Source: Candidatus Ratteibacteria bacterium (GTDB taxonomy: Bacteria > Ratteibacteria > UBA8468 > B48-G9 > JAFGKM01). From it: 36,140 nucleotides of DNA. Below are positions 2,190 through 32,601 of this stretch, piece by piece; position 1 is the stretch's first letter; each line of letters opens with the position of its first letter. A model generated the notes under the pieces. That model had not been told where the DNA came from, did no database searches, and saw only the letters and a list, made by a program, of their open reading frames with translations. A program made the translations under genes and the position numbers. The stretch is taken from the NCBI GenBank assembly GCA_046296715.1, contig JBKBIN010000012.1:1-36140 (forward strand), written 5' to 3'.

Positions 2190-2192
2190 AAA

Positions 2193-2372: not shown

Positions 2373-2375
2373 AAA

Positions 2376-6946: not shown

Positions 6947-7400
6947 TCTTTTCTCCTTTATCATTTACAAGAATTAATGCTTCATTTGGACAATTTTCAA
7001 CACATGCAGGAAATTGATTTTCAATACATAAATCACATTTAGAAGCCACTTTTTTATTTTTTAAATCAATTTTTATAACACCTAATGGACATACCATAAC
7101 ACACATCCAACAACCTACACACTTATCTTTATTATGCAGAACTAAATTTGTATTTTCATCTCTATACATTGCTCCTGTTAAACAAGATGCAACACATGTG
7201 GCATCTTCACAATGTCTGCATTGAACAGCAAATGAAATATGGTCAATCTCTTCAAAGTATATTCCTGAAAGTGGTTTTGTTTTTTCCATTTTGTATGCTT
7301 TTATAATATCTTTTGTCTTTGAATGAGTTGTTATACAATGAATTTCACATAATCTACAACCTATACAAAATTCTTCCTTTATTAAAATTCTTTTCACCAT
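6936..7400 (-). CDS. 4Fe-4S multicluster electron transfer protein (CooF/HydN-like)
   Basis: CIGCRLCEIHC, CRHCEDATCVASC, CVGCWMCVMVCP, KCDLC...PACVENCP. Confidence 0.88.
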   Translation of the reverse strand: MVKRILIKEEFCIGCRLCEIHCITTHSKTKDIIKAYKMEKTKPLSGIYFEEIDHISFAVQCRHCEDATCVASCLTGAMYRDENTNLVLHNKDKCVGCWMCVMVCPLGVIKIDLKNKKVASKCDLCIENQFPACVENCPNEALILVNDKGEKIEK

Positions 7401-9987: not shown

Positions 9988-9988
9988 T

Positions 9989-11320: not shown

Positions 11321-11996
11321 TTTTATCCTCCTTTTTGTTTAAACTTAAAAAAATTTTAATAATTTTTCTTCCTATTTGCTTTAATATTTTCAATCTTTCA
11401 GTATCAAAATTTATAACTTCAAAACAATTAAGAAGCATTTCATCTATTTCTATATGAAATTGAAAACCATATAAATTTTCACCAACTTTAATTCCTTGAT
11501 TTATATAACAATCTTTCCCTTTTACAATTAAAATTCCTTTTTGTGGTATCTCAAAACAATCTGAATGATATTGAAAAACTGAGAAATTTTTACAAATCCC
11601 ATTAAAAATTTTATCTTTTTCGCCATATTCGGTTAATTCAACATCATAAAATCCTATTTCATTACATTGATTTAAATTGACTTTTGCACCAAAAATTTTA
11701 GCAAGTATTTGTGAACCAAGACATATACCAAGAAATGGAATATTATATTTTTCAATCTCTTTTATAAACTTTTCCTCTTCTTTTAAAAATTTGTATTTTT
11801 CAACTTCATAAACATTCATAGGCCCACCAAGAGAAATCACATTTTTCATATTTTCAAAATCCTTTGGTAATTTATCACCTTTTTCAAAATCAACAATAGA
11901 ATAATTTAAATTCTCTTCTTTCAAAATTTGTTCAATTATTCCAGGTCTTTCTTCAACTTTATGTTTTATTATTAAAATATAATCTTTATTTTCCAT
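11313..11996 (-). CDS. Class I glutamine amidotransferase-like protein (stand-alone)
   Basis: LGGPMNVYE, LGICLGSQ (nucleophile Cys), FQYHSD, GFQFHIE (His-x-Glu). Confidence 0.85.
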   Translation of the reverse strand: MENKDYILIIKHKVEERPGIIEQILKEENLNYSIVDFEKGDKLPKDFENMKNVISLGGPMNVYEVEKYKFLKEEEKFIKEIEKYNIPFLGICLGSQILAKIFGAKVNLNQCNEIGFYDVELTEYGEKDKIFNGICKNFSVFQYHSDCFEIPQKGILIVKGKDCYINQGIKVGENLYGFQFHIEIDEMLLNCFEVINFDTERLKILKQIGRKIIKIFLSLNKKEDKND

Positions 11997-12014
11997 TTTT
12001 TCAAATTTTATATT

Positions 12015-12353
12015 TTAAATGGCTTTTTCACCTCTTTCTTCTGTCCTTATCCTTATAGCATTTTCTATATTTGAAATAAAAATCTTTCCATCCCCTATTT
12101 CTCCTGTTTTAGCAGAATTAACAATGGACATAATTATATTTTCAACATCTTTATCTTTTACAACTATCTCTATTTTTATTTTAGGTATAAGTTCTATTTT
12201 ATATTTTTCACCTCTCCATTGTTGAACTAATCCTTCTTGTCTACCATAACCTTCTATTTCACTAATCATTAAACCTACACATCCTGCTTTTTTTAAAGCA
12301 TTACGAACTTCATCTAATTTCTCAGGTCTAATAATTGCTTCAATTTTTTTCAT
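12015..12353 (-). CDS. glnK: P-II nitrogen regulator (amt-linked, GlnK-type), 112 aa
   Basis: MKKIEAIIRPEK, GYGRQ.G, RGEKY, PKIKIE, TGEIGDGKIF, RIRT; ATG 12353 has SD GGAGG and gives the canonical 112 aa. Confidence 0.93.
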   Translation of the reverse strand: MKKIEAIIRPEKLDEVRNALKKAGCVGLMISEIEGYGRQEGLVQQWRGEKYKIELIPKIKIEIVVKDKDVENIIMSIVNSAKTGEIGDGKIFISNIENAIRIRTEERGEKAI

Positions 12354-13710
12354 TTCTTCCTCCATTTATAAATTCAAATTCCTTATTTTCTTTCTCTACA
12401 GTTCCTAAAAAAGAATAGGCAGGTTTCCTAATTAAAAATTCTGGATAAGATGAATTTCCATGTGCACCTATATCCAATCCTTCAATCTCTTCTTGCAAAC
12501 TAACCCTAATTCCTATTGTTTTTTTAAGAACTAACCATATTATAAATGAAACAAGGAAAGTATATGCTGCAACACTAACTATACCTGTAAGTTGTGCCTT
12601 CAATAATTTTGTTCCTCCACCAAAAAATAAACCATTATCAATATTCATTCCAGCTATTTTATCCTGTGCAAAAAGTCCTACACAAATTGTTCCAAAAATT
12701 CCATTGACTAAATGCACAGATAAAGCACCAACTGGGTCGTCTATCTTTAGTTTATCAAAACCTATAACTGCCAGCACAACTAAAATTCCTGCAATCAATC
12801 CAATGATAAGGGAACTGCCAATACTTACAAAAGCACAAGATGCAGTTATTGCAACTAAACCTGCAAGACATCCATTAAGAGTCATCCCTAAATCAGGTTT
12901 ACCCAAAAGAACCCATGACATTACTGTTGAAATCATAATACTTGCTGCAGCTGATGTGTTAGTAGTAACTGCAATATGACTGATAGCAACAGGGTCTGCA
13001 CTCATAGTTGAACCAGGATTAAAACCAAACCAGCCAAACCATAAGACAAAAATTCCAATAGTTGCTAATGGTAAACTATGTCCTAAAATAGGGTTAATTT
13101 TATTATTGTTATATTTTCCGAATCTTGGTCCTAATAATAATATTCCAGCAAGCGCTGCCCAACCACCTACTGAATGAACAACAGTTGAACCAGCAAAATC
13201 TAACATTCCTTTTTCCTGTAAAAATCCTCCACCCCACATCCAGTGCCCTACTACTGGATAGATGAACATAGTCATAGCGAAAGAGAATATAATAAAAGAG
13301 ATATATTTTATTCTCTCTGCTACTGCACCAGAAACAATAGTAGCAACAGTTCCACAAAAAACTAATTGAAAGAAAAATTTTGCCCATAAAGGAACAGCCG
13401 TCCAAGAAATTGCAGAATAAACTCTTTTATATGCTTGACCAGTTGCAGGTGAATTATCTAACCCACTTACAAACCATAATCCTTTCAGTCCAATAAATGA
13501 ATTACCATCACCAAACATTAACCCCCATCCTAAGATTAAAAATCCTAATGAAGATATAGCAAAGACAATAAAATTCTTGGATAAAATATTCACACAATTT
13601 TTTGCTCTTGTAAACCCTGTTTCAACCATTGCAAACCCTAAATTCATAAAGAAAACTAACTTTGCTGTTACTAAAACCCATATTGTGTTTACCACAACCT
13701 GCACATCCAT
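12340..13710 (-). CDS. amtB: Ammonium transporter
   Basis: LVFFMNLGFAMVETG, FFQLVF, SGAVAER, DFAGSTVVH, WFGWFGFN, DDPVGALSVH (twin His present); ATG 13710 has SD GGAGG (the upstream ORF extension runs through the terminator). Confidence 0.96.
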   Translation of the reverse strand: MDVQVVVNTIWVLVTAKLVFFMNLGFAMVETGFTRAKNCVNILSKNFIVFAISSLGFLILGWGLMFGDGNSFIGLKGLWFVSGLDNSPATGQAYKRVYSAISWTAVPLWAKFFFQLVFCGTVATIVSGAVAERIKYISFIIFSFAMTMFIYPVVGHWMWGGGFLQEKGMLDFAGSTVVHSVGGWAALAGILLLGPRFGKYNNNKINPILGHSLPLATIGIFVLWFGWFGFNPGSTMSADPVAISHIAVTTNTSAAASIMISTVMSWVLLGKPDLGMTLNGCLAGLVAITASCAFVSIGSSLIIGLIAGILVVLAVIGFDKLKIDDPVGALSVHLVNGIFGTICVGLFAQDKIAGMNIDNGLFFGGGTKLLKAQLTGIVSVAAYTFLVSFIIWLVLKKTIGIRVSLQEEIEGLDIGAHGNSSYPEFLIRKPAYSFLGTVEKENKEFEFINGGRNEKN

Positions 13711-13750
13711 TTTTCCCTCCTTTTTACTATTTTTTTCACCTTTTAAAAAT

Positions 13751-13795
13751 AAAAAAAGGCGTTTTTCATCCACCTTCGGGATTCAAAACGCCTTT
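13751..13795 (-). terminator. Intrinsic terminator (attenuator) in the amtB leader
   Basis: Minus strand AAAGGCGTTTT-GA-ATCC-cgaaggt-GGAT-GA-AAAACGCC-TTTTTTT, 40 nt before the amtB start. Confidence 0.85.
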
Positions 13796-16096: not shown

Positions 16097-17617
16097 TTAT
16101 TCCCATTCAATTGTTGCTGGTGGTTTTGAAGTTATATCACATACAACTCTGTTAACACCTTTTACTTCATTCACAATTCTATTTGACATTCTTTCTAATA
16201 TCTTATAAGGGATCTTTACCCAGTCAGCAGTCATTCCATCCTTACTTTTTACTATTCTTATAGCAATAACATTTTCATATGTCCTTTTATCTCCCATAAT
16301 ACCTACACTTTTTATAGGTAATAGCACTGCAAAAGCTTGCCATATTTTATTGTAAAGATTTGCTCTTTTAATCTCTTGTTCAACAATGATATCAGCATTT
16401 TTTAATATTTCAAGTTTTTGTTTTGTTATACTACCAATAATTCTAACAGCAAGGCCAGGACCTGGAAATGGATGTCTATTTATTATAAAATCAGGTAGAT
16501 TTAATTTTTTCGCAATTTTTCTTACTTCATCTTTAAAAAGAAATTTAAATGGCTCAATAAGTTTAAATTTCATTCTTTCAGGTAGTCCTCCAACATTATG
16601 GTGTGTCTTTATTCTTACTGAAGGACCTCTAAAAGGCGACATACTTTCTATAACATCAGGGTATAATGTCCCTTGAGCAAGATATTCAGCACCGAATTTT
16701 TCTCCTTCTTTTTCAAATATCTCAATAAATGTATTACCTATAATTTTTCTTTTCTCTTCAGGATCTTCAATTTTCTCTAATTTTTTAAGAAATATCTCTG
16801 TGGCATCTATATATTTAAAGTTTACTCTTCCTTTAAAAAAATTTATTATTCCATCTGGCTCATTTTTCCTTAAAAGTCCATTGTTTACAAATATACTTAA
16901 AGAATTTCCACCGCAAACCTCATTTAAAATCAAAGATAAAACAGAAGAATCAACTCCTCCACTTAAAGCACATATAACTTTTTTATTGTTTACTTCTTGT
17001 TTAATTTCGCTTTTAATCTTTTGAATTATAGAACCAGGATTCCAGTTAGGTTTTAAATTACATATATTAAATAAAAAATTCTTTAATATTTTCTTGCCAC
17101 CTTCTGTATGAACTACTTCTGGATGAAATTGAACTCCATAAATTTTCTTATTTTTATCTCTAATTGCACCTATCTTGATATTCTCTGTTCTTCCTATTAC
17201 TTTGAAATTTTTAGGCAGTTTACTCACATAATCCCAATGACTCATCCAAACTATAGTTTTATCTTTTAAGGTACTAAAAATTTCCTCAGTTGTATCAGGA
17301 TAGAAAATTGTTTTCCCATATTCCCTTATATCTCCATGAACAACTTCTCCTCCAAAATATTTTGCTAAAAGTTGCATTCCATAACAAATCCCCAAAATAT
17401 AAAACTCTTTATCTTCAAAAATTCTACTATCAAGTTTAAAATCTTTCTCATTTATATGACCTGGACCTCCTGATAAAATTATAACTTTTACATTTTTTGC
17501 CTTTAATTCTTCATATTTTATTGAAAAAGAGAAAATTTCACAATAAATATTCAGTTCTCTAACTCTTCTTGCTATTAGTTGTACATATTGTGAGCCAAAG
17601 TCAATTATCGCAACCAT
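16097..17617 (-). CDS. guaA: GMP synthase (glutamine-hydrolysing)
   Basis: IDFGSQY, GICYGMQ, QFHPEV, LSGGVDS, QGTLYPDVIES, IKTHHNVGGLP, KPPATIEWE. Confidence 0.97.
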   Translation of the reverse strand: MVAIIDFGSQYVQLIARRVRELNIYCEIFSFSIKYEELKAKNVKVIILSGGPGHINEKDFKLDSRIFEDKEFYILGICYGMQLLAKYFGGEVVHGDIREYGKTIFYPDTTEEIFSTLKDKTIVWMSHWDYVSKLPKNFKVIGRTENIKIGAIRDKNKKIYGVQFHPEVVHTEGGKKILKNFLFNICNLKPNWNPGSIIQKIKSEIKQEVNNKKVICALSGGVDSSVLSLILNEVCGGNSLSIFVNNGLLRKNEPDGIINFFKGRVNFKYIDATEIFLKKLEKIEDPEEKRKIIGNTFIEIFEKEGEKFGAEYLAQGTLYPDVIESMSPFRGPSVRIKTHHNVGGLPERMKFKLIEPFKFLFKDEVRKIAKKLNLPDFIINRHPFPGPGLAVRIIGSITKQKLEILKNADIIVEQEIKRANLYNKIWQAFAVLLPIKSVGIMGDKRTYENVIAIRIVKSKDGMTADWVKIPYKILERMSNRIVNEVKGVNRVVCDITSKPPATIEWE

Positions 17618-19175
17618 TTTTTTCTTTTAGTTTATAATATTCTTTAATCTCTCTTACAGTTATACCTGTCTCTTTAAGTTTTTTTATTGCAAATAATGTT
17701 GCTTTTGCACCTGGAATTGTAGTTACAAGAGGTATATTCCTTTGAACAGCAATAGTCCTGATTGAAACAATATCTTTTTTAGGTTTTTTACCAGAAGGTG
17801 TATTTATTATCAGTGAAATTTCGTTATTTATTACATAATCAAGAATATTTGGTCTACCTTCATAAATTTTAGGAATTATCTTTACAGGTATGCTTTTTTC
17901 TTTTAAATATTTTCCAGTTCCAGAACTTGCAAGAATTTCAAAATTTAGATTTATAAGTTCTTTTGCTATAGAAACAATTTGTGGTTTGTCTTTATCTTTT
18001 ACACTTATAAATACTTTTCCAGATAAAGGTAATTTTTGTCCTGCTGCAATCTGACTTTTAGCATATGCAATTTCAAAACTTTCATCTATACCCATTACTT
18101 CTCCTGTTGATTTCATTTCAGGTCCTAAAACAGCATCTACATTTCCAAATCTATTAAATGGAAAAACTGACTCTTTTACAGCATAATAATTTATCTTAAC
18201 TTCTTTTTCAAATTTAAGTTCTTTTAATGTCTTTCCTATCATAATCTTTGTTGCAAGTTTTGCAAGAGGGATACCAATTGCTTTACTTACAAATGGAACT
18301 GTTCTTGATGCTCGTGGATTTACTTCCAACACATAAATTTTTCCATTTTTTATAGCATATTGAATATTTATCAGCCCCTTTATATTTAATGATAGAGCCA
18401 ATTTTTTAGTTGACTCTTTAATTTCTTCAATTATTTCCTTTTTTAAACTATATGGCGGCAAAACCATAGCGCTATCTCCTGAATGTATTCCTGCTTCCTC
18501 TATATGCTCCATTACTCCTCCAATAACACATATTTTTCCATCACATATTGCATCAACATCAACTTCTATTGCATCTTCAAGAAATTTATCAATTAAAATT
18601 GGATGCTCAGGTGAAACCTCAACAGCTTTTTCAATAAACTCTTTTAAAGATTCTTCGTCATAAACAATCTCCATTGCTCTTCCACCAAGAACATATGAAG
18701 GCCTAACTAAAACTGGATAACCAAGTTTACCAGCAATAACTTTTGCTTCTTGGTAAGTAAAAGCAGTTCCGTTTGGTGGCTGATTTAATTTTAATCTTTT
18801 TATTAATTCACTAAATTTTTCCCTATCTTCTGCTATGTCAATTGCTACAGGATCAGTCCCAAGAATCTTAACTCCAGCGTTCTTCAATGGAATTGCAAGT
18901 TTTAAAGGTGTTTGTCCACCAAATTGTAATATAACACCTTCTGGCTTTTCTTTATCAATAACATTTAAAACATCTTCAAGTGTTAATGGTTCAAAGTAAA
19001 GTCGTGTTGATGTATCATAGTCAGTACTTACTGTTTCTGGATTACAGTTTATCATTATACTATCATATCCTTCCTCTTTTAATGCAAAAGAAGCATGAAC
19101 ACAGCAGTAATCAAATTCTATTCCTTGCCCTATTCTATTAGGTCCTCCACCAAGAATAACAACTTTCTCGTTCAT
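17601..19175 (-). CDS. carB: Carbamoyl-phosphate synthase large subunit, C-terminal half
   Basis: GGGPNRIGQGIEFDY, RPSYVLGGRAM, AGIHSGDS, EVNPRASRT, C-terminal MGS-like domain. Confidence 0.93.
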   Translation of the reverse strand: MNEKVVILGGGPNRIGQGIEFDYCCVHASFALKEEGYDSIMINCNPETVSTDYDTSTRLYFEPLTLEDVLNVIDKEKPEGVILQFGGQTPLKLAIPLKNAGVKILGTDPVAIDIAEDREKFSELIKRLKLNQPPNGTAFTYQEAKVIAGKLGYPVLVRPSYVLGGRAMEIVYDEESLKEFIEKAVEVSPEHPILIDKFLEDAIEVDVDAICDGKICVIGGVMEHIEEAGIHSGDSAMVLPPYSLKKEIIEEIKESTKKLALSLNIKGLINIQYAIKNGKIYVLEVNPRASRTVPFVSKAIGIPLAKLATKIMIGKTLKELKFEKEVKINYYAVKESVFPFNRFGNVDAVLGPEMKSTGEVMGIDESFEIAYAKSQIAAGQKLPLSGKVFISVKDKDKPQIVSIAKELINLNFEILASSGTGKYLKEKSIPVKIIPKIYEGRPNILDYVINNEISLIINTPSGKKPKKDIVSIRTIAVQRNIPLVTTIPGAKATLFAIKKLKETGITVREIKEYYKLKEKNGCDN

Positions 19176-19176
19176 T

Positions 19177-20826
19177 TTATTCTATCTCAATTATTTCAGG
19201 TTGTTCATAAGTTGAATAATAATAAGGAGTGTATGCAATAAATTCACCTGCACAAGTGTCAACACATTTATAATCTGGTTCAATTTTATACTTTTTTCTC
19301 AAGTTTCTTATTTCCTCTTCACTTTTACCTACTATTTTCCCTATTTGTTTATCAGAAAACCCAAGTTCTTTTGCTTTTTTCATTGTTTGATAATCAATAT
19401 CTTTATCTTTAAATTTTTCAATTTCTCTCTCAAAATCAACAATCTCTTTAATGTTAAAAATAAACCATTTATCTATTTTGCAAAGGTTATAAATCTCATC
19501 TATTGTTTTCCCTTCTTTTAATGCTTTTTTAATATAAAAAATTCTGTAAGGATTTGGAGTTCTTAATCCATCATCTGTTTCCATTTTCAAATTTATATCT
19601 TCAAGTCCATAAAAATTTTCTTCCAAACTTCTTAATGCTTTCTGTAATGCCTCTTTAAAAGTTCTGCCAATCGCCATTACTTCACCAATTGACTTCATAG
19701 ATGTTGTTAAAAAAGGTATTGAACCAGGAAATTTCTCAAAATTAAATTTTGGTATTTTTACTACACAATAATCAATTGTTGGTTCAAAACAAGCAGGTGT
19801 CTTTTTTGTTATATCATTTGGTATCTCATCTAATGTATAACCAACTGCAAGTTTTGTTGCTATCTTTGCTATTGGGAAACCTGTTGCTTTTGAAGCAAGA
19901 GCAGAGCTTCTTGAAACTCTTGGGTTCATTTCTATAACAACCATTTCTCCATCTTCAGGATTAATAGCAAATTGAATATTACTCCCTCCAGTTTCTACTC
20001 CAATTTCTCTTATTATTTTTATGGCAGCATCTCTCATATCCTGGTATTCTTTATCTGTCAATGTTTGAACAGGTGCAACTGTTATACTATCGCCAGTATG
20101 GATTCCCATAGGGTCAAGATTCTCAATTGAACATATTATAACAACATTATCCTTTAAATCTCTCATTACTTCAAGTTCATATTCCTTCCAACCACAAACT
20201 GATTTTTCAATTAATATTTCATTTATTAAACTTGCTTTAAGACCAATTTCAGCAAGTTCTTCAAATTCTTCTATATTATAAGCAATTGAACCTCCTGTGC
20301 CTCCAAGTGTATAGGAAGGTCTTATAATTAATGGGAATCCGATCTTTTTTGCTATCTCAATTGCTTCTTTTATATTATGAGCAATACCACTTTCAGGAAC
20401 TTTCAGACCAATTTTTTCCATTGATTTTTTAAATAACTCTCTATCCTCTGCTTTTTTTATAGCATAATAGTTTGCTCCTATTAATTCTACATTAAATTTT
20501 TGTAAAATATTCATTTCATATAGAGATGTTGCTATATTTAATGCAGTCTGTCCTCCCAAGGTTGGCAGTAAAGCGTCAGGTCTTTCTTTTTCAATAATTT
20601 TGGCAACTATTTCAGGAACTAAAGGTTCAATATAGACACTATCAGCCATATCTGGATCTGTCATAATTGTAGCAGGATTACTATTTACTAATACTACTTT
20701 AAAACCTTCTTCTTTTAATGCTTTACAGGCCTGTGAACCTGAATAATCAAACTCACATGCTTGGCCTATTACAATTGGTCCAGAACCAATTATCATTATT
20801 TTTTTTAAATCAGTTCTCTTTGGCAT
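19177..20826 (-). CDS. carB: Carbamoyl-phosphate synthase large subunit, N-terminal half
   Basis: [55 protein letters not shown] then stop. Confidence 0.93.
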
Positions 20827-23490: not shown

Positions 23491-25059
23491 TCAAAATTTC
23501 AGAATTTTATCAACTTCTTCTTTATCACAATCCATGACATATGGAATACCTGATATTTCTGAAGCAGTTTTTGTCAATGCAAAAATATCGTCTCTGCTAA
23601 TGTATTTAAGTGAAAATTTCCTTGCTCCAGCCATAAGTTGTTTCAATCCAGTTGCCAATCTATCATAGTAACTGTACATTCCTATTGCACCTATTGGCAT
23701 ATTCTTAAATTCTTCTCCATATTTTTTCTTAAGTATTTCAGCATAAACAAAAATCTGCTCTATTGTATCTCCATACTTTTTATATTCAGTTGGAATTTTT
23801 CCTTCTTTTATTAAATTTCCAATTGTTTTTGCTGCCATTACAGCAGAAAAAGTGGCTCTTCCTAAACATATTGCTTTAACATAAGGAGCAGCAAGAGCAA
23901 TAGCTTTAAAAATATGGTCTTCCAGTGCAAAGCCTCCAGCCATGGCTATAGGTGGAATATATTTTCCTTTTTTGTCTATTTTCTTTAACATATCATAAAG
24001 AAGGCATTCTAATTCAACAGTAGGAATTCCCCATTCATTCATCATTCTCCAAGGGCTCATTCCTGTTCCACCACCAGCACCATCAACTGTCAAAAGATCT
24101 ATTTTTCCTAAAGAAGCGCATCTTACAGCAAGTGCTAAATCTTTTGGTCTATATGCTCCTGTTTTTAAAGTAATATACTTAAATCCTAACTTTCTCAATC
24201 TTTCAACTTCTTTAAGAAATGTCTCTTCCTCCACCATACCAAGACGTGAATGTCTTTCAAATTCTTTAATTGCTCCTTCTTCATAGGCCTTTTGTACTAC
24301 TGGATCTTCAGGATCAGGGAAAACATAATATCCTCTTTTCTTAAGTTCTAAAGCTCTCTCTAATGAGGGTAATTTTACCTCTCCTCCTATGTCTTTTGCA
24401 CCTTGACCCCATTTAATTTCAATTGCTTCTACGCCTAACTCAAGTAAATATTCGGGAACACCAAATCTACTATCTTCTACATTGATCTGAACAACTATTG
24501 CACCCTTTCCATTATACCATTTTTTATAAGTGTTAACTCTTCTTTCCATTTCAGGAGATTTTTTTACTTTACCATTTTTAAACTCTGCTTGGGGATCCAT
24601 ACCGCAAACATTTTCTCCAACTACTACAACAGTTCCACATATAGCAGCACCAACTGCTACTCCTTCCCAATTAATTCTTGCAACATCTGTAGAACCAAGA
24701 GCACCAGTAAAAAATGGAAAATCTAACTTAATCTTATTTTCTCCTCCTATTTCAGTTGATATATCCACTGCCTGAAAAATTGCCTTATCAGGATCAGGAT
24801 CAACTCCAACTGCACCTACACATGTTCCATGAATATTAAAATGAGAAAAATCTATTGGATAGTCCTTTTCTGCACCAGCAACCATACTTCCATAAGGTTG
24901 TGGATATATCATCTCCCTACCTCTAATAGCAGATTTTGCAACTTCACAAAAACCAACACAACCATCTAAACATACAACACAAATTCCTGAAAAAGGCGAA
25001 GCATTAACTCTATTTCTTGTATTTGTAGCAGGACTCGCATTCGGCTTACTAAAAGACAT
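23491..25059 (-). CDS. Stand-alone FMN-binding glutamate synthase family protein
   Basis: EIKWGQGAKDIGGE, LKTGAY, VDGAGGGTG, AGGF, LGRA (GltB FMN barrel-like); N-terminal CxxCxxxCxxxC; SD GGAGG. Confidence 0.82.
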   Translation of the reverse strand: MSFSKPNASPATNTRNRVNASPFSGICVVCLDGCVGFCEVAKSAIRGREMIYPQPYGSMVAGAEKDYPIDFSHFNIHGTCVGAVGVDPDPDKAIFQAVDISTEIGGENKIKLDFPFFTGALGSTDVARINWEGVAVGAAICGTVVVVGENVCGMDPQAEFKNGKVKKSPEMERRVNTYKKWYNGKGAIVVQINVEDSRFGVPEYLLELGVEAIEIKWGQGAKDIGGEVKLPSLERALELKKRGYYVFPDPEDPVVQKAYEEGAIKEFERHSRLGMVEEETFLKEVERLRKLGFKYITLKTGAYRPKDLALAVRCASLGKIDLLTVDGAGGGTGMSPWRMMNEWGIPTVELECLLYDMLKKIDKKGKYIPPIAMAGGFALEDHIFKAIALAAPYVKAICLGRATFSAVMAAKTIGNLIKEGKIPTEYKKYGDTIEQIFVYAEILKKKYGEEFKNMPIGAIGMYSYYDRLATGLKQLMAGARKFSLKYISRDDIFALTKTASEISGIPYVMDCDKEEVDKILKF

Positions 25060-25083
25060 TTTTCCCTCCTTTTTGTTAAAAAT

Positions 25084-25122
25084 AAAAAAGGTCCTTTCTC
25101 TCTTTCTCCGAGAGAAAGGACC
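25084..25122 (-). terminator. Intrinsic terminator (attenuator) in the leader of the glutamate-synthase-like gene
   Basis: Perfect 13 bp stem GGTCCTTTCTCTC/GAGAGAAAGGACC, 7 nt loop, TTTTTT; lies between the promoter and the ATG. Confidence 0.9.
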
Positions 25123-25134
25123 CCTTTGTCCTTT
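25115..25134 (-). promoter_or_regulatory. ANTAR-like hexaloop hairpin overlapping the terminator 5' arm
   Basis: AAAGGAC-AAAGGG-GUCCUUU; loop A1/G4; mutually exclusive with the terminator base. Confidence 0.7.
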
Positions 25135-25143
25135 TATTTAAAT

Positions 25144-25172
25144 ATTATACCCTCTTTTTTATAAACTGTCAA
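25144..25172 (-). promoter_or_regulatory. Consensus sigma70 promoter
   Basis: TTGACA(25172-25167)-17 nt-TATAAT(25149-25144), perfect match. Confidence 0.9.
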
Positions 25173-25259: not shown

Positions 25260-26141
25260 TTATATCAGATTAGAAAGAGAAAGTAATTCAGGAACATATT
25301 TGTCCCAACCAAGTGGCATAATATGTATACCCTGACACATATCTTTCATACCTTTAATCAGTTCTGCTCCTATATTTAAACTTACCTTAACTCTTTCTTC
25401 TTTTTTTGCTTTTGCTAACATTTCAATATATCTATCAGGAACACTAACTCCTGCAACATTCTCATTCATATATTTTGCCATACCAGCAGATTTTAAAAGA
25501 ACAATACCACCAAGAATTGGAACTTTATATTTCTCAACTTTTTTCATAAATTGTTCAAATTTTTTTAAATCATAAATTGCCTGCGTTTGAAAAAATTTTG
25601 CTCCTGCTTCAATCTTTTTCTCCATCTTAATAATTTGCAATTCAAGTGGTTCATATCCAGGACTTACAACTGCACCAAGGAAAAATTCAGGTTTTCCATC
25701 AAGCTGATTCCCATTCATATCTTTCCCTTCCATTAACATTGAAGCAACTTTTAATAGAGAAACAGAATCAAGGTCAAATACTGGTTTTGCTTCAGGATGG
25801 TCTCCTAAAATTGGATGGTCTCCTGTCAAACATAAAACATTTCTAATGCCTAAAACATAAGCACTTAAAAGGTCTGATTGTAAAGCAAGTCGGTTTCTAT
25901 CCCTACAAGTTATTTGAAAAATTGGTTCAATCCCAATATCAATAAGTAAATGACAAACACAAAGTGATCCAAGTCGCATAACCGAACTCTGTAAATCAGT
26001 AACATTAATTGCATCAACTTTATCTTTTAACTCCTCTGCTTCTTTCAAAAACTCAAGATTTGTTCCTTTACCAGGACCTATTTCTGAAGTAATAATAAAT
26101 TTACCTTCTTTCAACTTTTTCTGTAAATTTGAGATTTCCAT
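25260..26141 (-). CDS. metF: Methylenetetrahydrofolate reductase
   Basis: EIGP.KG, DAINVTD, QITCRDRNRLALQSDL, LCLTGD, KKIEAGAKFFQTQ, GIHIM. Confidence 0.93.
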   Translation of the reverse strand: MEISNLQKKLKEGKFIITSEIGPGKGTNLEFLKEAEELKDKVDAINVTDLQSSVMRLGSLCVCHLLIDIGIEPIFQITCRDRNRLALQSDLLSAYVLGIRNVLCLTGDHPILGDHPEAKPVFDLDSVSLLKVASMLMEGKDMNGNQLDGKPEFFLGAVVSPGYEPLELQIIKMEKKIEAGAKFFQTQAIYDLKKFEQFMKKVEKYKVPILGGIVLLKSAGMAKYMNENVAGVSVPDRYIEMLAKAKKEERVKVSLNIGAELIKGMKDMCQGIHIMPLGWDKYVPELLSLSNLI

Positions 26142-26816
26142 TTATAACTCCTCGTTTTTATCTATATCATAAAATACCTTTTTTCTTATTTTCCCGGTTG
26201 GCTCATATAGTTTATAATTTCTTGGTTCTTGATATTCCTTTAAAATTTCAAGTTTTCCAATTTTTTTTAGTTTTTCATATATTATTGCCCATCCGCAATC
26301 CTTTTCTGAATCTATCTCACATTTACCATTATTAGTTCCTCCACATGGACCATTAACAAGTTGTTTAGTACAAAAAGTTATAGGACATATCCCACCTGTT
26401 ATCCCAAGAAAACACATACCACATTCAGCACATCTTTCTTCACCAGGCCAAAGTCCTTGAAATCCACCAAGATATATAGTATTTGTTGCAGGATAGACAG
26501 GTTTTTCAATAATTTTTGAAACACACTGAACTCCTATTCCACATGAAAAAACTAAAATACCAAAATTGTCTGAAAAATCGCTTATAAATCTTGACATTTT
26601 TCTTACTATTAAATTCTTATTACACAAAAAATCAACTTTAATTTTTTCTTTTATTTTTTTCCCGTTTGCTAATAATTTTTCTTCAATTTCACCAACACTT
26701 TTATCATCACTTACTTTACAGACCTCTGCACATCCGTTACAAGTAAGTAAAATTAAATTTTCCTCTTTTGCAATCTTTAGGATTTCTTCAAAATTTTTCA
26801 ATTCTGAGTAAATCAT
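26142..26816 (-). CDS. metV: MetV, Fe-S/Zn small subunit of MTHFR
   Basis: CNGCAEVC, SCGIGVQ, RCAECGMC, GGICPITFC.K..VNGPCGG..GKCE, DCGW; abuts metF; ATG 26816 has well-spaced GGAG (alternative 26822). Confidence 0.88.
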   Translation of the reverse strand: MIYSELKNFEEILKIAKEENLILLTCNGCAEVCKVSDDKSVGEIEEKLLANGKKIKEKIKVDFLCNKNLIVRKMSRFISDFSDNFGILVFSCGIGVQCVSKIIEKPVYPATNTIYLGGFQGLWPGEERCAECGMCFLGITGGICPITFCTKQLVNGPCGGTNNGKCEIDSEKDCGWAIIYEKLKKIGKLEILKEYQEPRNYKLYEPTGKIRKKVFYDIDKNEEL

Positions 26817-27285
26817 CTTCATTCTCCTTTTTTAAGATTAAATCACAAAATTTTATAAGTTTATCTAAAATCTCCTCAAATTTTTCAAGTAATGTTTCAG
26901 AAAGTCCAATTTTCCAATCAATTTTATCTGGCTCAATACCAAAAATATAAAAATTTTTCAAAAAATCAAGACAACTTAAAATTTCAATATCTAAATAATT
27001 TTTTTCATGAGAAGAGAATGTGCAAATATCTATAATTTTAGGATTTTTACTTATATAAACAAAACCTGGTATCAAATTAAAATTTATTGCATCAACTATA
27101 ACCAAATTTTCACATCTTTCTTCCTCAACTATAGGCAAAATCCTCCATGTCTCTGTTCCTATTTCATAAATTTTTACTTCTTTTTCATCATAATAATTTT
27201 TAAGTTCTCTGACAAGATATATCCCAATTCCATCGTCCATTCTTAAAGTGTTTCCTATTCCAATAACTAACAATTTTATGCCCAT
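26788..27285 (-). CDS. Hydrogenase maturation endopeptidase (HyaD/HybD family)
   Basis: GIGNTLRMDDGIG, IVDA, SSH, GIEP, GLS motifs; follows the large subunit. Confidence 0.9.
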   Translation of the reverse strand: MGIKLLVIGIGNTLRMDDGIGIYLVRELKNYYDEKEVKIYEIGTETWRILPIVEEERCENLVIVDAINFNLIPGFVYISKNPKIIDICTFSSHEKNYLDIEILSCLDFLKNFYIFGIEPDKIDWKIGLSETLLEKFEEILDKLIKFCDLILKKENEDDLLRIEKF

Positions 27286-28811
27286 ATTAAAAATTCTTTT
27301 TTATTCAATTTTTTTCTATCTATAATCTGAACTGCACACGCAAGGCATGGATCAAAAGACCTAATTATCCTTAAAATTTCTATTGGGTTTTCTTCGTCTT
27401 TTATAGTTGTTCCTATGAGTGCCTTTTCAATTGGTCCATAATTCCCATTTTTATCTTTTGGAGAAGCATTCCATGTTGTAGGGGAGATAACCTGATAATG
27501 TGAAATTTTTTTGTTTTTTATCTCTACCCAATGACCAACAGCACCACGAGCACCTTCGCTTAATCCAATTCCTTTACATTCAGAATGTATTTCAAAATTA
27601 ATGAAGAACTCTTCATCTGGCTTTATTCTTAATAACCATTTTAAACTTTCTTCTATTAAAACTTTTGCTTCTATAAATCTTGCAATATATCTTCCAAGAA
27701 CAGAATTTAATTTTGATATATCTATTTTTAAATCTGAAATAAATTTATCAATCTCTGTTTTCCAAGGTTCTATATTCTTTTTATATGCTACAATTAACCT
27801 TGCAACAGGTCCAACTTCAAAAGGTTTTTCTTTATATCTTGGACCTTTTATCCAAGAATATGCATTCTTATTTACATCTACCTGTGGAAAATCTGTTGCT
27901 GGATTTTCTTTTTCACCTTTATACCATGAATTTTCTATATGCTCTGTTATTTCACTAACATCTAATTCTTCAATATTTTCCATATTTAAAACTACTCCGC
28001 CTGGTTGAAATTTTTCTATATTACCATCTTTTTTAAAATAAAATGTTCCGTATGCAAGATAATTTCCATATGAAGCGCCTATATCAAAATAGTCATAATA
28101 GTAATTAATTAGATCTTTTAAATCTCTCATATAATAAAGGTCAACAAATTCTTTTATGTCCTTCAATTTACCTATCGCATTTTCTATTTTTCCCATATCA
28201 ACTTTTTGAGTAACTCCACCAGGAACAATTCCACATTGATGTGGCATTTTACCTCCAAAAATACTTAAAAGTTGATGTGCATATCTTCTAATCTCAAGTC
28301 CCTTTATATAGTTATGAAGGCACCTTAAATTTATATCTTCAGGTAATCTCAAATCTTTATTTGTTGAAGAGAAAGGATAATAATTATCTCTTTCAAAAAA
28401 TTTACAAACAAGGTCAATTTCACTACTTACTCCTCTTTTTGCTTTAGTTAAATCTAAAAAATCAAGTAAACACAAATGATAAAAATGTAAAATAGAATTA
28501 TGAATGTGATTTGAAGCATGTATTAAATTCCTCACATAATAGGCATTTTCTGGAATTTTTTCTTTAATTTCTAAAGCATCTTCAACAGCATAAGTTGATG
28601 CAGTTGCATGTGCAATTGGACATACTCCACATATTCTTTGAGTTATCTGAACAGCATCAATTGGATCTCTACCAATTAGTATGTTTTCAATTCCTCTATA
28701 AAGCATTCCACTACATTTTGCATCAATTACTTTTTTATCTTCAATTTCAACTTCTACTTTTAAATGTCCTTCAATTCTTGTAACCGGGTCAATTATAATT
28801 TTTTTACTCAT
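27276..28811 (-). CDS. [NiFe]-hydrogenase large subunit (group 1-like)
   Basis: DPVTRIEGH, L1 QRICGVCPIAH, YSWIKGPRY, PTTWNASP, L2 SFDPCLACAVQ plus C-terminal extension; ATG 28811 has SD GGAG. Confidence 0.92.
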   Translation of the reverse strand: MSKKIIIDPVTRIEGHLKVEVEIEDKKVIDAKCSGMLYRGIENILIGRDPIDAVQITQRICGVCPIAHATASTYAVEDALEIKEKIPENAYYVRNLIHASNHIHNSILHFYHLCLLDFLDLTKAKRGVSSEIDLVCKFFERDNYYPFSSTNKDLRLPEDINLRCLHNYIKGLEIRRYAHQLLSIFGGKMPHQCGIVPGGVTQKVDMGKIENAIGKLKDIKEFVDLYYMRDLKDLINYYYDYFDIGASYGNYLAYGTFYFKKDGNIEKFQPGGVVLNMENIEELDVSEITEHIENSWYKGEKENPATDFPQVDVNKNAYSWIKGPRYKEKPFEVGPVARLIVAYKKNIEPWKTEIDKFISDLKIDISKLNSVLGRYIARFIEAKVLIEESLKWLLRIKPDEEFFINFEIHSECKGIGLSEGARGAVGHWVEIKNKKISHYQVISPTTWNASPKDKNGNYGPIEKALIGTTIKDEENPIEILRIIRSFDPCLACAVQIIDRKKLNKKEFLIWA

Positions 28812-28812
28812 T

Positions 28813-29637
28813 TTACTCTCCAATTTTTTCAATTTCTTTTCTTTTAAATAAAGGGCTATTTTTATCTATAAATTCTGGTTCTGTGCAACCAAAACAAGGA
28901 GAATTATTTTTTATACACCAGTTTGTTCCACCATTCCATTCTCTTATGGGACAATCAGCATAAGTAAAAGGACCTTTGCAACCAAGTAAATATAAACAAC
29001 CTTCTTCTGAAAAACTTTTTGCAAATGAACCTTTATCAAAATAAGGTCTTCTTGGACAATTCTCATGAATCAATTTGGAATAAAAATCTAAGGGTCTATT
29101 TAATTCGTCAAGTTCTAATTTCTGTCCAATTATAATTTTTGTTATAGTCCCCAAAAACCAATCTGGATGAGGTGGACATCCTGGGATATTTATTAACAAT
29201 TTTTTGATATTCCTTTCTTCCATAATTTCTTTTACTGGCTTACAACCAGTAGGATTTGGCGATCCCATGGGAATTCCACCAAAACAAGAACAACTTCCAA
29301 TACATATAATCCCTTTACAGTTTTCCATCAAATCCCATAAAATCTCTAAAAATGTTTTTTCTCCTATCCTTCCATAAATACCATTATCTTTTGTTGGAAT
29401 AACACCTTCAACAACAAGAAAAAAATCCTTTTTGAAACTTTCTTCTTTCAAAACTTCTATAACTTTTTCTCCACTTTCTGCCATTATTGTTGACTGAAAA
29501 ACCAAAGATAATACTTTCCCTGGAACAATCTCATCAAGAAGTAAGTTTTTTATTTTAAGAGAAGATGAATTTAAAACAGATATAGTACATCCAGTACAAC
29601 TACCAGATTGAAGCCATACAACTTTTATAGTTTCCAT
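28813..29637 (-). CDS. [NiFe]-hydrogenase small subunit, no Tat signal or membrane anchor
   Basis: METIKVVWLQSGSCTGC, VEG, GSC..GG, PGCPPHP, HENCPRR, CLYLLGCKGP, WC...SPCFGC; ATG 29637 has SD GGAG (the longer ORF overlaps folD). Confidence 0.92.
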   Translation of the reverse strand: METIKVVWLQSGSCTGCTISVLNSSSLKIKNLLLDEIVPGKVLSLVFQSTIMAESGEKVIEVLKEESFKKDFFLVVEGVIPTKDNGIYGRIGEKTFLEILWDLMENCKGIICIGSCSCFGGIPMGSPNPTGCKPVKEIMEERNIKKLLINIPGCPPHPDWFLGTITKIIIGQKLELDELNRPLDFYSKLIHENCPRRPYFDKGSFAKSFSEEGCLYLLGCKGPFTYADCPIREWNGGTNWCIKNNSPCFGCTEPEFIDKNSPLFKRKEIEKIGE

Positions 29638-29639
29638 TT

Positions 29640-30497
29640 TTATACTCCCTTTTGCAATTTTGTAAGTAAAATTGTATTCCTCAATAATATTGCTGTAGTA
29701 ATTGGACCAACTCCACCAGGAACAGGTGTAATCCAACTTGCTTTTTCTTTTGCTTTTTCAAATTCAACATCTCCTACTATTTTATCCCCTACCCTATTTA
29801 TCCCCACATCTATAACTATTGCACCATCTTTAATCCAATCTCCAGGTATCAAATTTGCTTTTCCAACTGCGACTATTAATATTTCTGCTCTTTTTACATG
29901 CTCTTCTAATTTTCCTGCATCAGAAGTCCCTATATGACAAATCGTTGTTGTTGCAAATTTATCAACTAAAAGTAAAGCAACTGGTTTTCCAACTATATCA
30001 GAATGACCAACCATAACAACTTCTTTCCCATATAAATCAATTCCAAGATAATCTATTATTTCTTTAACAGCAAGTGCAGTACATGGACCAACATATGGCC
30101 TTCCATAAACAATCCATCCCATATTAGTTGGATTAACTCCTTCAACATCCTTTTCTGCCGAAATTTTTGATTGAACTTTCCTTGTGTCAACTCCTTTTGG
30201 TAAAGGCAATTGTAAAATTATTCCTGAAACTTCATTGTTTTTATTTAACATCTCTATATTTTCAATAATTCCAGATTCATCAATGCTTTCAGGTAAACTT
30301 AATATCTCATAATTAATACCTATTTTCTCACAATTTTTTTTCTGCTGATTCATGTAAACCATACTTGCTGGATTTTCTCCAACAGAAACTGCAACAAGTT
30401 TTGGAATTATTCCACTTATCTTTAATTTTTCAATTTCTTTTTTTAAATCCTCTTTTATTTTTTCTGCAATAAGTTTTCCATCAATCAAATTTCCCAT
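29640..30497 (-). CDS. folD: Methylene-THF dehydrogenase (FolD family; probably monofunctional)
   Basis: IDGK, GIILQLPLP, KDVEG, PCT, IVGKP, IDVGIN, ITPVPGGVGP. Confidence 0.93.
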   Translation of the reverse strand: MGNLIDGKLIAEKIKEDLKKEIEKLKISGIIPKLVAVSVGENPASMVYMNQQKKNCEKIGINYEILSLPESIDESGIIENIEMLNKNNEVSGIILQLPLPKGVDTRKVQSKISAEKDVEGVNPTNMGWIVYGRPYVGPCTALAVKEIIDYLGIDLYGKEVVMVGHSDIVGKPVALLLVDKFATTTICHIGTSDAGKLEEHVKRAEILIVAVGKANLIPGDWIKDGAIVIDVGINRVGDKIVGDVEFEKAKEKASWITPVPGGVGPITTAILLRNTILLTKLQKGV

Positions 30498-31103
30498 TTA
30501 TACCTCCATTTTTTCAATAACTCTTTTATTTATTAACTTGCTTTTATTTTTCATTTGCTTTTCTAACTCTTCTATTTTTTGTTTAACTATTCTTTTAAAT
30601 TCTGAATCTTTAAGAAATTTCAAATTTATCAATATATTCATTTTCCCACCTAAAAAAGCACCTACTGCAAAAATATTAGCAATTCCTATGTCAGAAATCA
30701 AATTTTTATTTCCTTTTTCAACAAGTATATCGCAAAAATTAACTATTTCAAACATATAATTACATATTTTAAGATGTAAATTCGCTGAAATTTTTAAGTA
30801 TTCTTCTGTATCCTTTTTCTCTTTAATTGCCTCATCAATCTTTTTATATATCCTGCTATCCTCTTCAATAAAATTTGTGCAATCAATTAAAATTTCTTCA
30901 TTCCTTTCTTTGATTTTCTTCAGTTCTTCTTGAAACTCTTCGTATCCCTTTTTGCCAATAGTATAATTTAAAACCATATTGATTAGAGAACTTGAAAGTG
31001 AAGAAAGACAGGCAACTGCACTACCACCACCTGGAACTGGTGACTTTGCTGATAAAATATCAAAATAATTTTTTAAAGAACTATTTAAAAAATTACAATC
31101 CAT
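30498..31103 (-). CDS. fchA: Cyclodeaminase/cyclohydrolase family protein (FchA methenyl-THF cyclohydrolase-like)
   Basis: S.SPVPGGGS, MVLNYTIGKK.Y, GNKNLISD, N..INL motifs; abuts folD. Confidence 0.82.
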   Translation of the reverse strand: MDCNFLNSSLKNYFDILSAKSPVPGGGSAVACLSSLSSSLINMVLNYTIGKKGYEEFQEELKKIKERNEEILIDCTNFIEEDSRIYKKIDEAIKEKKDTEEYLKISANLHLKICNYMFEIVNFCDILVEKGNKNLISDIGIANIFAVGAFLGGKMNILINLKFLKDSEFKRIVKQKIEELEKQMKNKSKLINKRVIEKMEV

Positions 31104-32601
31104 AATGAAATTCTTTCAATTTCAAATACTTTTCATAATTCTCATCCCACAATTCACTATTTTCTGGTCTATAAACAATTAAAGGGAAAGAATTTCTTAT
31201 AACCTCTCTAATCTGGGTTATATCTTTTAGTTCTCTTTTTGCAAGAATTTGAATTAATATATTTCCTATACTTGTTGCTTCTGAAGGCCCTGTTATAACA
31301 ATCTTTTTTGTTGCAGAAGAGGCAAATTGAGAAAGAAGTGAATTTTTACTACCTCCTCCAACTATATGTAATGTTTCAATAGGATATCCTATAATCTCTT
31401 CAAGTTTTTCTAAAACATATCTATATTCCATTGCCAAACTTTCAAGAATTACTCTTGTTATTTGAGGAATATCTTCTGGAATTCTTTGCCCTGTCTTTTT
31501 ACAGTACTCTTTTATTTTTTCTACCATATTCCCTGGATATAGAAAATCTGCACTATTAACATCTATAAAAGCATAAAAGGAAGTAGCATTTTTAGAAATT
31601 TCAACAAGTTCTTCATATTTGTATATCTTTCCTGCTTTATCCCATTCTTTTTTACATTCCTGTAATATCCATAATCCCATTATATTCTTCAAAAATCTTA
31701 TTGAACCGCCAAAACCACCCTCATTAGTAAAATTATATTCAAGAACTTTATCATTTATTATTGGGTCTGTAATTTCAACTCCAAGAAGTGACCAAGTACC
31801 AGAAGAAAGATAAGCCCATCTTTCTTCGTCTTTACCAGGTGTTCCAACTACAGCAGAAGCAGTATCATGACAACATACAGCAAAAACAGGTATTTGTCCA
31901 ACACCTATTTCTTCCTGTAGGTTTTTAGTAATATTGCTAATTAAAGTTCCAGGAGAAATAACCTGGGTAAGAAAATCTGTTTTTATACCAAGTTGTTCAA
32001 GTATTCCAAAACACCAGTTTCCCCTTGGCGCCTTATTCTGACCAGTTGCTAAAGAATTATACATTTGTGAGGTTGTTGTAATTGTATATTCACAGAACTT
32101 TTCTCCAGTTAATAAAAAGTTAAATAAATCTGGCATAAAAAGCAATGTTTTACAATTATCAATTAAATAAGGGAATTCTTTTTTTGTTGCATATAATTGA
32201 AATAGAGTATTAAGAGGCATAAATTGAATACCAGTTTCCTTAAAAATTCTTTCTCTCGGAACTAATTGAAAAACCTCTTCCATTATTCCATTTGTTCTTT
32301 CATCTCTGTAATGGAAAGGATTTGAAAGAATTAAATTATTATTTCCAATAAAACCACAATCAACTCCCCATGTCGTTATTCCAATTCCTGCAATCTCTCC
32401 ATAATTTTTTGCAATTGATATAATTTTTTTAACTTCTTCAAATAAAGACAATAAATTCCAGAATCTATGATTAAAAATTATTGTATTGTAAGTTGGAAAT
32501 CTATATATTTCTTCTATTGTAAGTTTATTTCCATCAAAATTTCCAATTATTCCTCTTCCACTTTCTGCTCCAAGATCAATCGCAAGATAATTTTTTTTCA
32601 T
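31093..32601 (-). CDS. rhaB: Rhamnulokinase/fuculokinase-family FGGY sugar kinase
   Basis: AIDLGAESGR, TWGVD, YRD.RT, TGIQFM, HDTASAV, SSGTWSL, TNEGG, LKNIMGLW, VGGGS; ATG 32601 preferred over TTG 32628. Confidence 0.85.
   Translation of the reverse strand: MKKNYLAIDLGAESGRGIIGNFDGNKLTIEEIYRFPTYNTIIFNHRFWNLLSLFEEVKKIISIAKNYGEIAGIGITTWGVDCGFIGNNNLILSNPFHYRDERTNGIMEEVFQLVPRERIFKETGIQFMPLNTLFQLYATKKEFPYLIDNCKTLLFMPDLFNFLLTGEKFCEYTITTTSQMYNSLATGQNKAPRGNWCFGILEQLGIKTDFLTQVISPGTLISNITKNLQEEIGVGQIPVFAVCCHDTASAVVGTPGKDEERWAYLSSGTWSLLGVEITDPIINDKVLEYNFTNEGGFGGSIRFLKNIMGLWILQECKKEWDKAGKIYKYEELVEISKNATSFYAFIDVNSADFLYPGNMVEKIKEYCKKTGQRIPEDIPQITRVILESLAMEYRYVLEKLEEIIGYPIETLHIVGGGSKNSLLSQFASSATKKIVITGPSEATSIGNILIQILAKRELKDITQIREVIRNSFPLIVYRPENSELWDENYEKYLKLKEFHYGL

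Follow-up and report, generated by a model that had tools for sequence, protein, structure and literature searches.

A candidate hydrogenase-fed MetVF methylene-tetrahydrofolate reductase encoded by a conserved hydS-hydL-protease-metV-metF cassette

How MetVF-type methylene-tetrahydrofolate (THF) reductases (MTHFRs) receive their electrons is treated as an open point of acetogen bioenergetics in the available text of PMC8760232 and PMC8578170, and the acetogenic types I to IV set out in the accessible part of PMC8760232 include no hydrogenase type. Here we describe a locus at positions 25260..31103 (minus strand) of a 36,140-nucleotide stretch of DNA from a Candidatus Ratteibacteria bacterium (contig JBKBIN010000012.1; this whole stretch is the window), in which genes for a [NiFe]-hydrogenase (hydS, hydL) and its maturation protease stand before metV and metF. 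We argue that the HydSL-MetVF unit is probably an H2-dependent methylene-THF reductase.

Type III, the RnfC2-MetV-MetF enzyme of Acetobacterium woodii, likewise combines MetV and MetF with a dedicated, co-encoded input module (PMC8760232, accessible part), and relatives of our host within its order carry RnfC2 in the same slot; its input module is an NADH flavoprotein, whereas here it is a Ni-Fe hydrogenase joined to another MetV subtype. Type II MetVF (C. ljungdahlii, T. kivui), whose physiological donor is called enigmatic in the available text of PMC8578170, and the hypothetical Ech-MetFV and Rnf-MetVF arrangements resemble our locus in having only MetV and MetF and no NAD(P)H module. They differ in that here a soluble candidate donor lies in the operon, as a cassette overlapping metV and inherited along with it, and an ion-pumping link would exist only through H2. 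Type IV, HdrABC-MvhD-MetVF of Moorella thermoacetica, also wires MetVF to a multisubunit redox module, but hdr and mvhD are absent from our operon and had no match in the genome, and there is no extra flavoprotein and no sign of bifurcation. The best reading is a hydrogenase-fed MetVF variant that resembles type III, but with H2 replacing NADH, and is not type II, III or IV as defined.

The adjacency of hydSL and metVF is not a first sighting. One sentence in the available text of PMC11287216 places HysAB (group 1a) next to MetVF in two Ca. Bipolaricaulia and proposes that it supplies electrons. Two Bipolaricaulota loci of our survey (L055 and L065) share our layout, and Rnf and a group 4 hydrogenase likewise occur in the genomes concerned; the remark, in the accessible part of that paper, covers no loss of the twin-arginine translocation (Tat) signal, exchange with RnfC2, MetV subtype, wider distribution or test. 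Five further papers (PMC5736913, PMC7325909, PMC9586279, PMC6895022, PMC10213532), in the portions available, deal with Hdr/MvhD-linked, RnfC-linked or plain MetVF, not with a hydrogenase cassette, and the literature searched, which left most subscription papers and supplements outside its scope, held no biochemical test of a hydrogenase-fed MetVF. A preliminary description of the window, made from the sequence alone, knew of no characterized example; this holds for biochemistry in the literature searched, whereas for Ca. Bipolaricaulia the adjacency and a proposed role have been published before.

The hydrogenase cassette and its host genome

Seven open reading frames (ORFs), all on the minus strand, make up the locus in the order fchA-folD-hydS-hydL-protease-metV-metF, with intergenic gaps of 0, 2, 1, -10, -35 and 0 nt. 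Their common orientation and tight spacing were correctly read in the preliminary description, and Pfam and NCBIfam matches agreed with the identities it had given to all seven. The cassette proper consists of hydS (28813..29637; PF01058/PF14720), encoding a 274-aa [NiFe] small subunit, hydL (27276..28811; PF00374), encoding a 511-aa large subunit, a dedicated hydrogenase maturation protease gene (26788..27285; PF01750, TIGR00072) and metV of a hydrogenase-linked subtype (26142..26822; PF12225). It is followed by metF (25260..26141; PF02219) for the flavin subunit, and the reductase is of the MetVF type, the Cys-rich metV and metF abutting with a 0-nt gap. Upstream lie fchA (30498..31103), encoding methenyl-THF cyclohydrolase (PF04961; NF045657 below its cut-off), and folD (29640..30497), encoding methylene-THF dehydrogenase/cyclohydrolase (PF00763 and PF02882). 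GC and GC3 of the cassette equal those of neighboring genes.

The hydS start codon is the ATG at 29637; it follows the folD stop by 2 nt and is preceded by a purine-rich sequence resembling a ribosome-binding site. HydS has 13 residues before its proximal CxxC, with no RR, and its C terminus comes directly after the last cluster motif. As the preliminary description had claimed, the small subunit has neither a Tat leader nor a C-terminal helix or anchor. A longer HydS with a leader, starting from TTG 29736, was rejected, since this frame runs over the 3' end of folD and lacks a twin arginine. As in group 1a enzymes, ligand sets for three Fe-S clusters are present, which by comparison with hydrogenase structures would be proximal C14/C17/C116/C154, distal H191/C194/C214/C220 and medial C229/C241/C248/C251. 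The residue at the medial-cluster position varies: family f1 of the order has Cys, f2 and f3 have Leu, and metV-linked loci from elsewhere have Val or Ala. The type of medial cluster may differ between lineages.

The best solved-structure matches of HydL were group 1a NiFeSe enzymes (PDB 4kl8, 1cc1, 5jsu; 360 bits), and its closest NCBIfam models, too, are of the NiFeSe type, both below cut-off (NF033181, 558 bits against 600). The X of 4kl8 and 1cc1 is matched in the alignment by Cys489, which places Cys at the Sec position. The metal ligand motifs L1 RxCGxC and L2 DPxxxC are kept, with C61, C64, C489 and C492 invariant; E14, H68, R422, P444 and T445 were likewise invariant in the order alignment. 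Compared with periplasmic group 1a enzymes, the two-subunit, three-cluster design is shared, whereas the Tat leader, Sec and a recognizable cytochrome partner are missing. HydSL is not a canonical periplasmic group 1a enzyme, and group 1a matches in metagenomes should not all be taken for periplasmic respiratory enzymes.

The terminal His of large subunits of this kind binds Mg. HydL has Gln495 at this position of DPCxxCxxH, again unlike the group 1a enzymes, and carries a 16-residue C-terminal extension. The DPCxxCxxQ form occurred in 9/9 aligned HydL of the order and, among the matches listed, in 22 of the 23 closest homologues, the terminal His being present in 95/97 of the rest. The literature searched, outside which most subscription papers lay, held no precedent for a terminal Gln. 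DPCxxCxxH is the consensus, and the protease cuts after its terminal His (available text of PMC5299533). In five metV-linked loci (L055, L065, L073, L102, L121), HydL stops at the terminal His, lacking an extension, and the locus contains no protease gene.

A second maturation protease gene lies beside hypA/hypB on contig C43, and two proteases were present in 8/11 cassette carriers; it is therefore unlikely that the operon protease serves only a group 4 enzyme. Against relative G006, dN/dS was 0.10 for hydS and 0.12 for hydL; over all comparisons the two ranged from 0.10 to 0.16, similar to folD, and the protease from 0.11 to 0.33. Both subunit genes are under purifying selection, which together with the dedicated protease favors a working HydL.

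The host genome (G000; 1.64 Mb, 117 contigs, 92% complete), whose nearest named relatives by HydL are labeled Candidatus Omnitrophota, encodes Wood-Ljungdahl functions: fhs, fdhA (with NuoE/NuoF-like partners of FdhA), acsA-E, cooC and a RACo activator. A blank PF03598 search had suggested that acetyl-CoA synthase was missing, and this was rejected: acsB spans an assembly gap, with residues 1-165 at C8:1-495 and residues 670-734 at C45:2-196, and was missed by the family search. Hydrogenase maturation genes are present as well (hypA/B on C43, hypC/D/E on C9, hypF on C37), so that hypA-F, fhs and acsB, which the preliminary description had proposed to look for, are all accounted for. It had also correctly claimed that no cytochrome b, diaphorase, Hdr, MvhD or RnfC2 gene accompanies the hydrogenase. 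In the genome as a whole, which is 92% complete, no RnfC2, Hdr, MvhD, hydrogenase cytochrome b or [FeFe] hydrogenase was found, and PF02662 (MvhD) and PF02754 (HdrB-type CCG) had no match there. The genome has a single MetV-domain match and no rnfC2 beside metVF; rnf genes occur on C10, where the sole RnfC is devoid of a MetV domain. The host therefore has a hydrogenase without its usual acceptor and a MetVF without its usual donor. Judging from gene content and motifs, a membrane [NiFe] complex at C6:27506-41756, with Mrp-like antiporter subunits, an NAD(P)-binding flavoprotein pair and an interruption by three unrelated-looking ORFs, is probably a group 4 hydrogenase.

Exchange with RnfC2 and co-inheritance of MetV

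We searched 41 genomes of the order, in three families (f1, f2, f3), with profiles of HydL and of the MetV domain. A cognate HydL was found in 11 of them, at 57-100% identity. Nine of the ten relatives, from three families, kept the order hydS-hydL-protease-metV-metF while its flanks changed, and the contig of the tenth ends inside the protease gene. Because the order is so conserved, the linkage of hydSL to metVF is not due to chance, and the synteny that the preliminary description had proposed to check is found both in the order and in the wider loci described below. Of the folate C1 operon that it had described, the five genes from hydS to metF stay together, whereas fchA-folD is outside the core, being missing upstream in 2/10 relatives (G029, G031) and in most distant loci; the G020 contig begins at hydS, so its upstream genes are not visible.

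Most remaining genomes had two MetV-domain matches, one to MetV and one to a frame of ~600-700 aa, RnfC2. Ten genomes carried the hydrogenase cassette only, 24 RnfC2 only, one (G020) both and six neither. RnfC2 was seen at the locus in 13/25 and was inferred for the other 12 where a frame of at least 597 aa had a MetV-domain match. The six with neither module were G005, G009 and G013 (the latter two 81-82% complete) and three genomes at 62-65% completeness. All four frames scanned had the RnfC2 domains PF12225, PF13375 and PF01512. Where inspected, RnfC2 occupied the same slot as the cassette, after rhaB-fchA-folD in f1 and after fchA-folD in f3 (G026 vs G028), and in f2 the two genes preceding either module were the same, as far as N-terminal sequences show (G025 vs G029/G031). 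Thus, hydS-hydL-protease-metV and rnfC2-metV appear to be interchangeable. Matches to acsC/D exceeded the cut-off in 9/11 cassette carriers and in 7/24 RnfC2-only genomes, although kin are not independent.

G005 (95% complete) has no cognate HydL, a 5'-truncated and frameshifted metV and an intact metF; it looks like a natural loss of the cassette, with the frameshift in a T run that is possibly an assembly error. Its donor slot (L168:850-1638) holds an inverted 262-aa ORF with no Pfam match and 23.5 bits to MetF, which Atlas called MTHFR-like (0.98, 236/256 features; the first match is possibly its own cluster).

The exchange takes in MetV but apparently leaves MetF in place. In G004, an RnfC2 user of the same genus, MetF shares 94% identity with that of our host, but the RnfC2-type MetV before it only 38%; overall, RnfC2-linked MetV from the order showed 35-47% identity to the host MetV. 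We built IQ-TREE trees for the order only, with 37 MetV-domain, 20 MetF and 18 FolD rows and with partial genes excluded. The MetV tree divided by partner, into a hydrogenase-linked group (99/96, three families) and an RnfC2-linked group (84/97), whereas the FolD tree followed the host and mixed both module types (98/99; 97/93). MetF of the RnfC2-bearing G004 nested among hydrogenase-linked MetF (100/98), in a tree much of which was poorly resolved. These trees suggest that MetV travels with the donor module, and FolD and, less clearly, MetF with the host. Over 39 cassette loci, Spearman correlations of distances were 0.76 for MetV-HydS and 0.81 for MetV-HydL, but 0.53 for MetV and the abutting MetF and 0.29 for HydL-MetF; these values are descriptive, the pairs not being independent. 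Five of the 39 loci combine hydrogenase-linked MetV with a distant MetF lineage (43-45% identity).

G119, W125 and E129 were present in 44/44 hydrogenase-linked MetV and in 0/12 RnfC2-linked MetV, 11 Cys being common to both; among 11 other MetV copies, the Trp occurred in just two, the only ones to cluster with the hydrogenase-linked MetV. In the MetV monomer model (mean pLDDT 79.7), residues 121-129 of the G119/W125/E129 loop were below 50. Sequence comparison gave no solved MetV, and the model had no Foldseek match at E 0.001 (a solved relative is still possible); a fold search returned only generic alpha/beta folds (Z at most 9.1). At L175, L176 and L177 (G011, G020 and G013), a third metV subtype occurs as an orphan, neither metF nor a donor module lying nearby.

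Scanning species genomes with the HydL alignment, we kept the best 80 loci, which are not a random sample and include six contigs duplicated from the order set. Among them, 41 combined a signal-less HydS with a metV on its strand, six had a signal-less HydS without metV, all at most 601 nt from a contig end (one of these six, L088, was classed as signal-less by hand, its RR lying upstream of the likely start), 28 had a Tat-bearing HydS and five a HydS that could not be classified, one of these with metV. Hence, metV was found beside 41/41 signal-less HydS whose contigs reach far enough and beside 0/28 Tat-bearing HydS; 25/28 of the latter had hybA/hybB-like or cytochrome b-like genes, labels that come from reference ORFs picked by size and position, not from domain scans. 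By submitters' labels, the metV-linked loci belong to Omnitrophota, Chloroflexota, Bipolaricaulota, Aerophobetes, Thermotogota, Fraserbacteria, Planctomycetota, Poribacteria, Nitrospirota, Actinomycetota and Thermodesulfobacteriota. We obtained no single clade of signal-less HydL in a FastTree analysis. Two loci (L086 and L113) have two metV, two metF and, after hydL or the protease gene, a further ORF of ~630 aa.

Mechanism, energetics and alternative explanations

In the mechanism we propose, HydS-HydL would be a cytoplasmic uptake [NiFe]-hydrogenase that provides the MetVF methylene-THF reductase with its electron-input module. H2 would be split at HydL, electrons would move through the three clusters of HydS to MetV, an Fe-S protein, and then to the MetF flavin, and methylene-THF would be reduced to methyl-THF for acetyl-CoA synthase. 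The observations behind this proposal are gene content, the lack of an export signal, conservation, near-exclusive distribution, co-inheritance of MetV and purifying selection; we infer the reaction direction from thermodynamics, and we infer likewise the electron path and the physical contact. The conserved linkage, the hyp genes, the replacement of RnfC2 in its slot by a cassette with a MetV of its own and a weak fold score partly sustain the preliminary suggestion that HydSL may dock on MetV.

Co-folding, run here as HydS plus MetV with 44-row alignments, gave a score of 0.49 against 0.00 for the best control, with no interface given; runs shared at least 69% of contacts, and partner pLDDT was at least 75. 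The fold mark was reached by 116/157 solved complexes and by 2/215 mismatches, and at 0.60 or below by 18/157 and both mismatches. This outcome weakly supports a predicted HydS-MetV contact. The chance that HydS and MetV form a stable direct complex is, in our judgment, about even.

Reduction of methylene-THF by H2 yields -41 kJ/mol and still -13 to -19 kJ/mol at 1-10 Pa H2, where reduction of NAD+ is uphill (calculated with -320 mV, and with -200 and -414 mV as in the available text of PMC9586279). If our proposal is correct, H2 could be used at pressures too low for NAD+ reduction, NADH and ferredoxin would be spared, and the question of the MetVF electron donor would have a direct answer for many uncultivated Wood-Ljungdahl bacteria. 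The H2 could come from the habitat. Ferredoxin at -450 mV would gain ~30-35 kJ/mol on passing its electrons to H2 at 1-10 Pa, and diffusion of H2 would then achieve what the proposed Ech-MetFV complex of T. kivui (PMC8578170) would achieve by contact. We offer only tentatively the idea that part of the H2 is made by the cell's own group 4 hydrogenase, in an internal H2 cycle with methylene-THF as final acceptor of an ion-pumping step. The most far-reaching form of the proposal, to which we give equal weight for and against, is a stable, four-subunit, carrier-free H2:methylene-THF oxidoreductase that would be a fifth acetogenic MTHFR type, spread over some eleven phylum labels, with the MetV subtype (the G119/W125/E129 loop) as the exchanged adaptor and, together with a membrane group 4 hydrogenase, possibly an internal H2 cycle in which ion-pumping oxidation of ferredoxin ends at methylene-THF. 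The swap of NADH and H2 cassettes before a 94%-identical MetF within one genus offers a ready comparison of one MetF with two MetV adaptors and two donors.

Alternatively, free HydSL might reduce a soluble carrier such as ferredoxin or flavodoxin, with MetVF working as a type II enzyme. Type II MetFV of T. kivui does accept reduced ferredoxin in vitro, at 0.4 U/mg (PMC8578170, available text), and the HydS-MetV score is weak. The cassette, however, contains no carrier gene in the host or its relatives, transfer from H2 to ferredoxin at -450 mV is uphill (+7 kJ/mol, standard), and a shared carrier leaves it unexplained that MetV is swapped with the donor while MetF stays; we therefore consider indirect coupling unlikely. 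Still less probable is mere co-regulation, in which the hydrogenase would balance fermentation redox and pass no electrons to MetVF. Unrelated genes (the rhaB-like kinase, hisC, trpS) do share the operon, but the hydrogenase has no other encoded partner (no Tat signal, cytochrome b or diaphorase), MetVF has no other donor module in the genome, the cassette and RnfC2 are nearly mutually exclusive, and no signal-less HydS among the best 80 loci whose contig reaches far enough is without metV.

The preliminary description had allowed for an H2-evolving unit that oxidizes methyl-THF, and such a unit, serving acetate or methyl oxidation and venting electrons as H2, would fit the reversibility of the Wood-Ljungdahl pathway and the fourth Cys at the medial cluster of f1 HydS, which favors a low-potential [4Fe-4S] cluster. 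MetFV also oxidizes methyl-THF with benzyl viologen (available text of PMC8578170). That direction nevertheless costs +41 kJ/mol and requires H2 below an equilibrium value of ~0.006 Pa, no energy-input partner is encoded, and syntrophic oxidizers are modeled in the accessible part of PMC10689502 with membrane reverse electron transport through Hdr and cytochrome b, neither of which was found in the host. We consider this direction very improbable. An equally slim chance attaches to an inactive or noncatalytic HydL acting as scaffold or electron wire: Gln replaces His throughout the order and in nearly all of the closest homologues listed, but the four metal Cys and E14, H68, R422, P444 and T445 are invariant, the extension and the dedicated protease are kept, dN/dS is low, and Gln would be able to bind Mg through its oxygen.

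Several observations weigh against an H2-dependent reductase. G020 carries both modules, and G011 and G031 have the cassette but no matches to acsB or acsC/D. HydL has Gln where the protease-cut His is the consensus, and signal-less and Tat-bearing HydL interleave, requiring three changes in a FastTree tree with no outgroup and no AU test. The comparison at W125 covers hydrogenase-linked and RnfC2-linked MetV, not type II or IV MetV. The hyp genes are uninformative, hypD being present in 37/41 genomes and the group 4 enzyme using them too. A co-fold score of 0.49 falls in a range more often wrong than right unless the pairing is likely beforehand. In the host, ackA is reduced to its 3' half in mid-contig (C3:49731-50309), two genes after a pta-like ORF, whereas it is whole in 4/5 relatives and spread over two contigs in the fifth; a 705-aa frame at C39:9083 resembles ADP-forming acetyl-CoA synthetase. 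The Fer4-nuoE-nuoF block of the carbon monoxide dehydrogenase (CODH) cluster, present in G002 and G006, is deleted. Because of these two losses, the host's own acetogenic flux is uncertain.

Surrounding genes and minor observations

At the CODH cluster, the first 51 codons of the Fer4 gene remain before acsA (C8:3065-3288). In G002, G006 and G029, this place is taken by a Fer4-nuoE-nuoF-small Fe-S block, a possible NADH-linked or bifurcating CODH module.

Upstream of fchA, the co-oriented run continues with a rhamnulokinase-like FGGY kinase gene (rhaB-like; 31093..32601, minus strand), which overlaps fchA by 11 nt, and then with hisC, trpS and a nudix gene. The kinase scored 474.8 bits with TIGR02627, below the cut-off of 527.95, and its start codon was our choice. 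It is outside the redox unit, and throughout f1 it is fixed upstream of fchA, whichever donor module is present.

Just past metF, ahead of the next gene, a pattern match on the minus strand (25085..25172) comprises a 12/12 sigma-70 consensus promoter (25172-25144) and a hairpin (25127-25085). This perfect consensus suggests that the operon terminates at metF and that the next gene is separately transcribed, although promoter-like sites in the region overall were in no excess (68 vs 70 in shuffles). The hairpin is terminator-like, and in this leader (window 23491-25172) it might act as an attenuator. The gene concerned encodes a divergent glutamate-synthase FMN-domain protein of 522 aa with an N-terminal Cys motif, and purF-carA-carB follow; carB consists of two separate genes (549 and 524 aa; 17601-20826), as it does in G006.

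Farther on, a nitrogen cluster at 4926-13773 contains amt, P-II, glutamine amidotransferase and glnA genes and a glutamate synthase split into GATase, FMN/Fe-S and GXGXG subunits, which is accompanied by a Fer4 protein and by a pyridine-nucleotide oxidoreductase. At 132-3083, two proteins with twin-arginine leaders, one DUF362 and one Fer4, are encoded together with a membrane Fer4_5 protein and tatC, and Tat export therefore exists in the host organism.

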